Positions 20,715 through 60,968 are shown, numbered from the stretch's first letter. The stretch: 64,000 nucleotides of DNA from Eledone cirrhosa (GCA_964016885.1 OZ024741.1:383842001-383906000), one strand, 5' to 3'. Translations and numbers: made by a program. Notes: a model not told the origin generated them from the letters alone.

Positions 20715-21002
20715 TATAAGGAAAATAAATGAAATCGAAAATGCAACTGGAGTCTTTTTATATAAAAATATATATTTATTTGGTTCCTTTACCGGTTTCG
20801 CAGTTCTTCTGCTTTTCAAAAGTAGAGTTGAGATGGAGGGCTTGTGGTTTTTCTCAGATGTGAAATAAACCACAAACCCTCCATCTCAATTCTACTTTTG
20901 AAAAGCAGAAGAACTGCGAAACCGGTAAAGGAACCAAATAAATATATATTTTTATATAAAAAGACTCCAGTTGCATTTTCGATTTCATCTTTTTTCCTTA
21001 TA
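20715..21002. repeat. About 290-bp near-perfect palindrome carrying hammerhead motifs, next to (TA)n
   Basis: Arms about 20715-20855 and 20860-21002 are reverse complements. Confidence 0.9.
20895..20930 (+). ncRNA. Minimal type I hammerhead ribozyme-like motif, U3-A8 core variant (mirror copy on - at 20787-20822)
   Basis: CUU-UUGAAAA-GCAG(AAGAA)CUGC-GAAA-CCGG-UA-AAG. Confidence 0.6.
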
Positions 21003-21029
21003 TATATGTATACAAATATATATATATAT

Positions 21030-21150
21030 AACAAGGAAAGTGTGGTAAGAAACCAGGTGGACCATAACGCACCAAAGTACTTGATACTTAGGGTAGTAGA
21101 GTGATTCGAAACGGCCGGTGTGGGCCATCGGAGTCCTGACTCTTTTCCTA
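21030..21150 (+). mobile_element. (TA)n-anchored dispersed repeat terminus (related copies 42948-43022 inverted and 44081-44156)
   Basis: gtggtaag.aaccag..ggaccata.c.caccagagtact..ata.tta.ggtagtagagtg is shared by three sites. Confidence 0.7.
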
Positions 21151-21615
21151 TATATATATATATATATATATATATATATGTGTGTGTGTGTGTGTGTGTG
21201 TGTGTGTGTGTGTGTGTGTGTGTGTGTGTGTATGTGTGTCTGTGTCTGTGTCTGTGTCTGTGTGTTTGTATATGTGTGTATATTTGTATATATATATGTG
21301 TGTGTGTGTGTCTGTGTACACACATATATACACACATATATATATATATATATATGTGTGTGTGTATGCGTGTGTGTGTGTGTATGTATACACACATATA
21401 TACACACATATACATACATTCCTATTATATTCCTTCGACAAAATCTAAATTTTTCCAGCTTTCCACCGTTTATCTGCTGCATATTTTACAATATCTTTTG
21501 TCGTAATTCTGTTTTCAGTCTGTTGTTCATTTATTTTTAATATTTTTTAATGTATTTAGTGTGGAATGACTGCAGCAATTTGTCTGTCGACTCTTTGTTG
21601 TGGTATTATTTCGCG

Positions 21616-21750
21616 GTGGATTGGCATCAACGTTGAAAGGGTGGACGCGATGCTTGCAGCATAGAATTACCTGTTTGGAAAGTCTGAGTTCAAATCCCGT
21701 CGAGGTAACTTTGCCTTTCATCTTTACGGGATCAATAAAATAAAACAGTA
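21616..21750 (+). mobile_element. SINE family A copy, truncated by (CA)n
   Basis: ggtggattggca...gagttcaaatccc...gcctttcatc. Confidence 0.7.
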
Positions 21751-57948: not shown

Positions 57949-58140
57949 ATTTATACCTGTGATTATTGGGGCACTGGGATATGTTAGTAACTGCCTCAAT
58001 GCAAATCTTGCTGGGCTTCACAGAAACAGAAAGTTAGGAAGTTAGGAAATTACAATTACAATCCATGGAACAGTAAAAGTATGTAAAACATTCCAAAAAT
58101 TCTGCATCTAATAACTGCATGTACACATGTACAGATACAT
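57949..58140 (+). mobile_element. Severely 5'-truncated copy of the R4/Dong element directly after (CATA)n
   Basis: Matches 1813-2012 (attattggggcactgggatatgttagtaactgcctcaat...aaacattccaaaaatt.tgcatcta). Confidence 0.9.
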
Positions 58141-58653
58141 GTGTACATGTGTACACACACACACACACACACACACACACACACACACACACACACACAC
58201 ACACACACACACACACACACACACACACATATATATATATATATACATACACTCACACACATGCATACATACATATATATATACATACATACATACATAC
58301 ATATATGCACTGTGTGTTGTCCATATAATTCTAGTTATAATGTTTCACGTATTTATCTCCTTTCATCGAAAGACCCGTAAAATCTTGTATTTGTTTTGTT
58401 ATCGTCTCACATGTATCTCACCATATAGCAGGCTCTTATCTATTATGTAAATTGGCATCTCAAGGACAGTAACATCTTAGTTCACGAAACTGCACTGCCA
58501 ACAAAGTGGCTGACGAAGTAACGTTGTATATTGCTGTTCGTTCGTGTTATGTGCATTTTCTGCTAATTGTACATATCTATATATATGGCTAACTGATCAC
58601 ACACTTTTCTCCCTCCAAGTTCCTTTTCTCCGCTTCTTCCTCTTTTCATTCTA

Positions 58654-58689
58654 TCTTTTGATGAAGAACTAGCGTCCGAAACGTTAAGA
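58654..58689 (+). ncRNA. Degenerate minimal hammerhead motif; inverted partner at 58985-59021 (-)
   Basis: UCUU-UUGAUGA-A-GAAC(UAGC)GUCC-GAAA-CG-UU-AAGA. The partner reads CCGAUGA..UCC-GAAA-CG-UU-AAGA. Confidence 0.45.
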
Positions 58690-60968
58690 CTCTTTTCCTA
58701 TTATATCAATCGTTAAACTAATATATATATATATTCATTCTTCGATTTTACTCTATCATTTTGTTGTATTGTTTACCCGTTTACTTTTCGCATATATATA
58801 TATATGTATGTGTGCTTGTGTGTGTGTGTGTGTGTGTGTGTGTGTGTGTGTGTGTGTGTGTGTGTGTGTGTGTGTGTGTGTTTGTGTGTATGTGTGTGTA
58901 AAAGAGTAACAAAAATAACAACAGAAACAGGACAGTATATGGAAGGAATATATTAGTTTAACGCTTGAAATAGTAGGAAGAGGGTCTTAACGTTTCGGAT
59001 TCTAGTCTTTCATCGGAAAAAGAATGAGAAATTAGAAAGGTAGAGGGGACAGGCAGTGCAGTGCAGAATCAGAAAAACTTGTATGCATATATACACATAC
59101 ATGCACCTGGTTAATTACATAGATGTTTGTATAACTATATATATATATATATATATATATATATATATATTGACATACTTATGTATGGGAGTTGTTAACA
59201 ATATTCAATGAATTAGCAGATACTTTATAACGTAGGACAAAAGCATTGCATTATTTGGTGCGGTTCTTTGCACCAGATTTCGAGTACCACCAAGGGTCGA
59301 CTAGATAAGTAGTGGTATCGATTTATATTCCTATAATGAATGGTAGATATAAACTGAATTACAATAGAGGAAAGAAGATACACCAGTCCATCCATACGCT
59401 GTAGTCAGAGCTGAACTGGCCAAAATGGACATTTAGGCAATGCTCGGTGGGCCGCTAATAAATAGCTGAAAAAATATAATGAAAACTGAAGTCATACTTG
59501 TAGCACACAGATTAAAACGAAAATAGAAGGCATCTTAGCTGGGTAGTGAAAACACGCCTTTGATTCTCAGCGTCAGTAATATTTTAGTATACTGAATGGT
59601 TTTAAACACAGTTCGCTTCTGGCTGTAGTTGCTACGTTGTATGAAGCCTTCTATTGATAAAAAAAAACATAAGATTCGTTGGCTCTCTATGAACCTTGCT
59701 TAGAAATATGCGCCATCATTTTTATATTCATTTTAGATTTACAAGATAAAAAAGTATTTCTCGTTATTTAGACCATAATCAGACCTGACCGAGCTACCCT
59801 ATGACGAAAGCCGTTCCAAAAGTGATCAACCTGTCTATTTCGAAGTTATAATATATTTAGGATAACATTATCTAATGTGTCATTCCCTTTTACACCTTTT
59901 TAAGCAGTAGGGTGTGGTTGAGGGAGTTAGCTACTATTTTTAGCAGACGCAGTAGTAGTAGTAGTAGTAGTAGTAGTAGTAGTAGTAGTAGTAGTAGTAG
60001 TAGTGGTTGTTGTAGTAGTAGTAGTAGTAGTAGTAGTAGTAGTAGTAGAGACGAAAACATTTTAAATGTCTTTCCGCGTTATCAAACCTGAAAACTTGAG
60101 AAACATAAATACCCATTCATTCATCTTTATTTACTATAAATATTATTTCTTCCCTCTTTCTCTGTTTCTCTGCATCCCCTTCTCCCCCTCCCATTCTCCA
60201 TCCCCCCCCTATCTATCTATCTATCTATCTATCTATTTATCTTATCAATCCTTATAATGGATGAATTTCCGAGAGGTCTGGCGTGATGACCACATTTAAA
60301 AAAGTATTCAATACACTGACAAATATAGACATCTTTATTTTATATAGAAATGACTACTACGGGACTAGAACTGGTTTCTTTCATTCGTATTAAAATCATC
60401 AGGAAATTTTGTGTGACTTTCTCATGATTTTATGTAAATGAAATCATTTCTTTCAATCGCTCCTATCTATATTGTCTCTGTCTATCGTTGTTGTTGTTTT
60501 TACCTTTCCATTGCTCCTTATCTATGAAGTGACTTCCCACTTCTGAGACAGTTTCTAGACACCTTTTGAATTTCAAGTTACTGTTAAACATATCTTGATG
60601 CAGAAGCTCAACGAGTGCATTCCTATTGTACACACAAACGCACGCACGCAAACACACACACACATACACACACGCACGCACACAAAAACACACACACATA
60701 CACACTGAAGCACGCACGCAAACACACAAACACACACTCATACACACACACACACACATACAAAGAGACAGTAACTTAGACATACCACACCCACGTAATT
60801 TTTTACTCTTAGCTTACGCATACACTCAGCAACTGACACACAGACACATTCAATAACATACAATCGCACATAAACACACACACACACTCAGTTACAGGCA
60901 TCGATACATATCCAATAACTTACACACAGATACACTGAATAACTTGTACGTAACACGCACACACAAAT

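Follow-up and report, generated by a model that had tools for sequence, protein, structure and literature searches.

Truncated tails of Penelope-like elements with predicted hammerheads and a retrozyme monomer in (TA)n tracts of Eledone cirrhosa

Results

Hammerhead-bearing repeats and their neighbours

The window examined here is a stretch of 64,000 nucleotides from the genome of Eledone cirrhosa (GCA_964016885.1, OZ024741.1:383842001-383906000), with positions counted from its first letter. Scattered through it are repeats with a predicted minimal type I hammerhead, which we assigned to families A to F and B'. An inverted pair of family B Penelope-like element (PLE) 3' ends comprises a long arm on the minus strand (20639..20862; core at 20819, a U3-A8 variant) and a short arm on the plus strand (20855..21002; core at 20898, with a palindromic stem III of 6 nt). 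Family A contributes two such pairs. One has its long arm at 24609..24903 on the minus strand (core at 24848, C3 mutated) and its short arm at 24910..25168 on the plus strand (core at 24973, with an extra nucleotide before the 6-bp stem II). The other has a minus-strand long arm at 31951..32260 (core at 32196), which bears a 60-nt tail, and a plus-strand short arm at 32264..32526 (core at 32328); the palindrome at 31998-32526 has arms of 264 nt that are 100% complementary.

Between 41700 and 43390, TA-targeting elements of five or six different kinds lie end to end, which marks a local insertion hotspot. An inverted terminal fragment of family C on the minus strand (41706..41745), from which the hammerhead is no longer present, is followed on the plus strand by the 3' end of a Hydra-type PLE of the same family (41760..41953; core at 41862, with a U10.1-U11.1 mismatch common to the family) and by a family B' PLE 3' end with the long terminus (41959..42183; core at 41993, U3-A8, with the family-wide GCAA, that is A13C). 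Next on this strand are a truncated monomer of family D, a tandem non-LTR retrozyme (42273..42591; core at 42286), which covers 319 of 422 nt at 98.4% identity, and a PLE 3' end of family E, the sister of A (43046..43337; core at 43093, weak stem I). Farther downstream, a decayed 3' end related to family F (58643..58727, plus strand; core at 58658, stem II broken) and a decayed family F 3' end (58859..59054, minus strand) converge over a (TG)n tract, apparently as the result of two separate insertions.

Other repeats share the window. Family G is a short palindromic element found at 42830-43021 and 21031-21148, with the same pattern of short and long ends in (TA)n; in 20 loci of it (L233-L252), all truncated near the end, neither a hammerhead of its own nor an ORF was seen, and one variant pattern has 32 exact matches. 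Two related TA-bounded repeats on the minus strand, at 31319 and 31799, hold the first half of a hammerhead core and then an F-like start of stem II; the partner strand of the half-core was not seen in either, and they are possibly PLE ends with half a core. At 51751, a core-like heptamer precedes a perfect short hairpin and the second half of the core is absent, probably a chance resemblance. The broken reverse transcriptase (RT) ORF of a LINE, which we take to be CR1/L2-like, occupies 21911-24224 on the plus strand. Putative non-LTR retrotransposon ORF fragments, RT-like and RNase H-like by appearance, lie at 684-1989 and 3356-4920 on the same strand, and tandem repeats at 38167-39262 and 35017-35786 have periods of 65/28 nt and 7/14/21 nt.

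The motifs exceed chance expectation

The window was scanned with a strict descriptor of the minimal type I hammerhead, which specifies a paired C3-G8 or U3-A8, stems I and II of at least 3 bp, GAAA or GCAA, a short stem III and an NUH site. This returned 8 matches from five families (20898, 24973, 32328, 41862, 41993 and 42286 on the plus strand; 32196 and 20819 on the minus strand), whereas dinucleotide shuffling (three block sizes, 100 shuffles for each) gave means of 0.10-0.19 and a maximum of 2. Relaxing the descriptor raised the number in the unshuffled window to 10 by adding 43093 and the mirror copy at 24848 (minus). A sequence-only reading of this DNA had named seven hammerhead loci; the six plus-strand cores above and 43093 all carry the motif, 3-6 nt to the right of where that reading had placed them, and its three mirror hammerheads proved real on the minus strand. 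It had also described the pair at 58.6-59.0 kb as degenerate. Both of these copies are decayed, which is why 58658 (plus) and the minus copy near 59000 miss the descriptor, and the majority form of family F across the genome is a textbook minimal hammerhead.

That most cores are followed by AATAAA was likewise confirmed, since this signal occurs within 130 nt of 6 of 8 plus-strand cores compared with 15% of random 150-nt windows; it is missing downstream of 41993 and 58658. No PLE ORF adjoins any copy in the window, as had been noted before. An Rfam scan of the window yielded no hammerhead family among the best 150 of 281 matches, only hairpin miRNA models below threshold, and for most cores the swapped dimer did not emerge from free co-folding.

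The strict descriptor was composed with the candidates already known, and counts across the whole genome are therefore a stronger test than the window shuffles. We took copy number as exact matches to a core pattern in the 3.0-Gb genome, for which the controls gave 0 matches for each of A, B plus B', B', D, E and F. Family A (window cores 24973 and 32328) has 11,191 such matches, B (20898) and B' (41993) together 16,320, with 3,629 for B' alone, D (42286) 1,878, E (43093) 2,933 and F (58658 and the minus copy) 3,886; the total for all families is at least 36,000. The exact family C pattern matched only the window copy (41862), which has a private substitution; when 40 of 1,239 candidates from a DNA search were scored, they yielded 42 matches, nearly all of them 96-100% identical. 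These seven families agree with the earlier proposal of several distinct families of minimal type I hammerheads of the Penelope or retrozyme kind.

Sister families are set apart by compensatory changes in the stems, each of which counts as just one event in the divergence of two families: A and E differ in this way at three pairs (two in stem II and one in stem I), and B and B' clearly at two (one in stem II and one in stem I). The shuffled control, here on the window, and the covariation, here between families, both speak for the motifs. Tuning of the descriptor on known candidates might have favoured chance matches in AT-rich, microsatellite-rich DNA, but the 8 matches against 0.10-0.19 in shuffles, the thousands of exact genomic copies with 0 control matches and the covariation rule out such an origin, to which we give practically no credence.

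Six families are predicted ends of coding PLEs

The sequence-only reading had regarded the loci as non-autonomous, non-coding Penelope-like or retrozyme families. This holds for family D, a retrozyme, and fails for A, B, B', C, E and F, in which longer copies continue into the end of a GIY-YIG endonuclease ORF. A search of extended copies for RT and GIY-YIG ORFs, suggested in that reading, found the endonuclease in all six families and RT sequence preceding it in A, E, B' and C; RT was not seen in family B or F, each represented by two ORF-linked loci. The endonuclease ORF ends upstream of the hammerhead by about 200 nt in A, about 270-290 nt in E, 1,055-1,296 nt in B' (7 loci), 1,027 and 858 nt in B (two loci, L139 and L193), 2,065 and 2,030 nt in C (two loci, L133 and L191), and 416 and 580 nt in F (two loci). 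Pfam recognised RVT_1 in the B' ORF (E = 2.9e-7) and, below the cut-off, in the A ORF (E = 7e-5), as well as GIY-YIG in the B' and B ORFs. Seven of 11 proteins had no Pfam match, including the A and E endonuclease segments and the C ORF, which were identified by motifs and tblastn. The family F ORF is decayed and 28-29% identical to the B' endonuclease.

The linkers allow a tentative placement of these ORFs. A CX4CxxC linker occurs in A, E, B' and F, which we label from their motifs as PLEs with a Neptune/Nematis-type linker, a label that does not tell the two clades apart. Family C has a CxCX5C linker and a DKT motif (L133) and, by these motifs and its insertion in (TA)n, appears to be a Hydra-type PLE. 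Among the loci fetched there was no uninterrupted full-length ORF, and those of L038 and L140 are broken. In B', the partial tandem arrangement pLTR-ORF-pLTR is seen at L127, where two hammerheads 3.1 kb apart flank RT sequence, and at L140.

When loci were taken in genome order, the ORF end was reached in 17 of 30 for A, 18 of 25 for E, 5 of 30 for B', 1 of 30 for B and 1 of 25 for F. None of the 23 best-scoring family C loci reached it, their 1.5-kb flank being too short for a distance of about 2.0 kb. In the loci that the searches yielded, the distance over which copies extend upstream varies continuously, the shortest covering tens of bases and the longest reaching the locus boundary, with medians of 44 nt in B and 103 nt in F, and this continuity points to 5' truncation rather than a fixed non-autonomous unit. 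The 5' truncation points of family B cluster 33-44 nt upstream of the core (L041-L070), perhaps an RT stop or a joining hotspot.

These data bear on the view that every locus is a dedicated non-autonomous element or retrozyme without coding relatives. Such a view fits the window copies, which adjoin no ORF, the truly non-coding family D, and the B and F copies, which are mostly very short, with clustered 5' ends in B. It does not account for the longer copies of six families that reach endonuclease ORF ends at constant distances, nor for the continuous spread of 5' ends; for A, E and B' it is ruled out by ORF-linked copies at many loci, and as a general explanation we regard it as highly improbable. 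Non-autonomous subfamilies may exist within B or F. By their sequence, the window copies of A, B, B', C, E and F are identified instead as truncated pLTR ends of coding PLEs.

Family D is a tandem retrozyme

Family D forms head-to-tail arrays of 420-428-nt monomers, each with one type I hammerhead and no ORF, and the arrays often have an opposed second arm. Distinct monomers differ by an average of 1.5 substitutions within arrays and 4.3 between them. The 422-nt monomer has a GC content of 39% and, folded as a circle, is predicted to be 69% paired (z = -8.4 against 60 shuffles). It has no sequence in common with the six PLE ends except TA runs. The locus at 42286 is a truncated monomer of this non-coding tandem retrozyme, and D is the sole non-coding family of the seven.

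Two fixed ends and inverted pairs

Targeting of (TA)n, as claimed in the sequence-only reading, was upheld: 157 of 202 classified 3' ends, found by anchored calling and with 13 internal D monomers left out of the count, abut a TA run. Each of A, B, B', C, D and E terminates on its 3' side at either of two fixed points, which lie 60, 64, 39, 110, 61 and 58 nt apart, respectively, and in D both points are internal to the tandem unit. In family F, the elements end in either (CA)n or (TA)n. At the B' locus L210, the long end continues into the ORF leader.

The mirror copies are inverted insertions of the known kind, the arms of palindromes. One long and one short end were combined in 30 of 31 head-to-head pairs, 4 of 4 in D, where pairs were classified in A, B, B', C and D and none in E or F, and the paired A, B' and C loci had mostly been chosen for opposite-strand matches irrespective of end type. 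The sole exception, L032, has two short ends and looks like two separate insertions. The pair at L040 was mis-joined in this count; its true partner also ends short, which fits the rule.

Such palindromes might derive not from two priming events but from fold-back of a single cDNA or from later gene conversion. In keeping with this, short pairs are near-perfect palindromes with spacers of 0-7 nt, and arms within a pair are more alike than unrelated copies (divergence of 1.35 vs 5.4% between loci in A, 1.9 vs 4.2% in B, 0.3 vs 3.7% in B' and 2.2 vs 3.1% in C). However, the arms often differ greatly in length (about 0.5 vs 1.6 kb at L034; about 0.9 vs 0.2 kb at L225) and the long end is borne by either arm, and we consider fold-back or conversion rather improbable compared with two priming events.

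Core variants and the need for cleavage

Like the minimal hammerheads of PLE pLTRs, the predicted ribozymes have a type I core, a stem II, a short stem I and a stem III that is either palindromic or missing, with A13 altered in B'. The U3-A8 pair is shared by B and B', an extra nucleotide lies between positions 9 and 10.1 in A, E and F, and a U10.1-U11.1 start of stem II is fixed in C and D. The GCAA that had been reported at 41990 is a family-wide trait fixed in B', present in 99 of 100 among the matches listed and in 33 of 34 collected copies from several subfamilies, a set that overlaps the 100. The B' core thus combines U3-A8 with C13, and its stem I consists of 3 bp of A-U; stem I of family E is broken.

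Changes at A13 strongly lower hammerhead activity. Our literature search found no paper that joins the hammerhead with A13C, although Lunse et al. 2017 and Nelson and Uhlenbeck 2008 may cover A13 variants; the portions of PMC9901934 available to us give no A13 value. The hammerheads could be passengers with poor or no cleavage, their fold drifting or kept for another reason and the PLEs spreading independently of it. B', in whose subfamilies A13C is fixed throughout and whose stem I consists of 3 bp of A-U, spread to at least 3,629 copies, and stem I of E is broken. In the sections of the literature on which we draw, low activity is reported even for dimers (PMC4209133), and Naiads are said to thrive without hammerheads, which may parasitise PLEs (PMC8557442). 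Against this, the other families keep canonical cores and show compensatory stem changes, and B' itself shows such changes relative to B. We judge the passenger explanation less likely than not.

Discussion

Taken together, the window very probably contains 5'-truncated tails of six coding, (TA)n-targeting PLE families with a predicted hammerhead, and one truncated 422-nt retrozyme monomer that was likely copied by the same enzymes. In the mechanism that we propose, a tandem source copy would be transcribed, and two hammerheads, having exchanged the strands of their palindromic stem III, would cleave in dimeric form to give a unit-length, possibly circular RNA. The RT-endonuclease would cut (TA)n, likely steered by its zinc-finger linker, and each of the two DNA ends would serve as primer for reverse transcription of one and the same RNA species, at sites separated by 39-110 nt. 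Early arrest of the cDNAs would be followed by their head-to-head joining, and repeated use of TA tracts would explain why C, B', D and E are crowded together at 41.7-43.3 kb. The sequence-only reading had further supposed that these elements process their own RNA. For the window copies this is unlikely: they are solitary, without a same-strand partner of their own family, and their mirrors lie on the opposite strand, so that one transcript would hold no dimer partner. The copies are likely inert.

Much of this has precedent. As far as the sections consulted describe them, the minimal hammerheads in the pLTRs of metazoan PLEs (Cervera and de la Pena 2014, PMC4209133) are also of type I, with a short helix I and a small palindromic helix III. 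They include forms with an extra nucleotide between 9 and 10.1, as here in A, E and F, and the U3-A8 covariant, as here in B and B'; a genome holds numerous families, the motifs mostly occur singly and stem from truncated PLEs, and pairs lie 100-700 bp apart on opposite strands. The GCAA (A13C) core, the U10.1-U11.1 start of stem II and a cephalopod host are not mentioned in those sections. In the parts consulted of another study (PMC3088659), U-U at 10.1-11.1 is natural and the best-tolerated mismatch.

PLE clades with a C-terminal endonuclease, Neptune/Nematis and Hydra, offer a second comparison (Craig et al. 2021, PMC8557442). The portions of that paper used here describe 5' truncation, partial tandems and an inverted 5'-truncated copy with a tail at one end only. 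They assign CX2-5CxxC linkers to Neptune/Nematis and DKT with CxCX5C to Hydra, the latter as in our family C, and tie the zinc-finger linkers to microsatellite targeting and the (TA)n bias. Tails are 39-110 nt here and 30-40 nt in those portions. Since the inverted copy and the one-ended tail are already described there, what our count of 30 in 31 pairs adds is the rule of one long and one short end. A literature search for hammerhead Penelope-like elements together with octopus returned PMC8557442 only, and nothing was found on PLE microhomology priming in the literature since 2022.

Family D resembles the metazoan non-LTR retrozymes as described in the consulted parts of two papers (PMC7229834, by Cervera and de la Pena 2020; 10.64898/2026.07.22.740005, by Li et al. 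2026): its monomers are non-coding, run head to tail and contain a single type I hammerhead, its GC content is low and its circle is predicted to be self-paired. PLEs have been proposed as retrozyme mobilisers in the same parts of both papers. Three features set D apart from the retrozymes reported in these parts: a monomer of 422 nt, slightly longer than the 170-400 nt given there; a core of the minimal type whose stem II starts with U-U; and arrays in which two opposed arms terminate in (TA)n at fixed ends of the PLE type. That retrozyme D was copied by PLE enzymes is likely.

Published work already covers the motif class, the link of that class to Penelope elements and retrozymes, and the inverted anatomy with its TA targeting; the dispersed set as such is therefore ordinary PLE debris. 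Less ordinary are the PLE ends of the retrozyme and the fixation of GCAA in the B' core. On balance we lean towards a reading in which a single two-site priming rule, with long and short ends in (TA)n, would apply to coding PLEs of two clades and to a retrozyme, and in which B' was amplified thousands-fold with A13, a core base that normally does not vary, changed to C, either because cleavage is dispensable or because U3-A8 with C13 makes a new working core. The six PLE families and the retrozyme form a natural panel within one genome, in which ends, tail lengths and core variants are defined, including the canonical and A13C sister pair B and B'. With this panel two questions can be put to the test: do PLE hammerheads have to cleave, and are retrozymes mobilised by PLE enzymes? 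If true, the two-site rule would provide direct evidence from the genome for mobilisation of retrozymes by PLE enzymes through the priming of both DNA ends on one RNA element.
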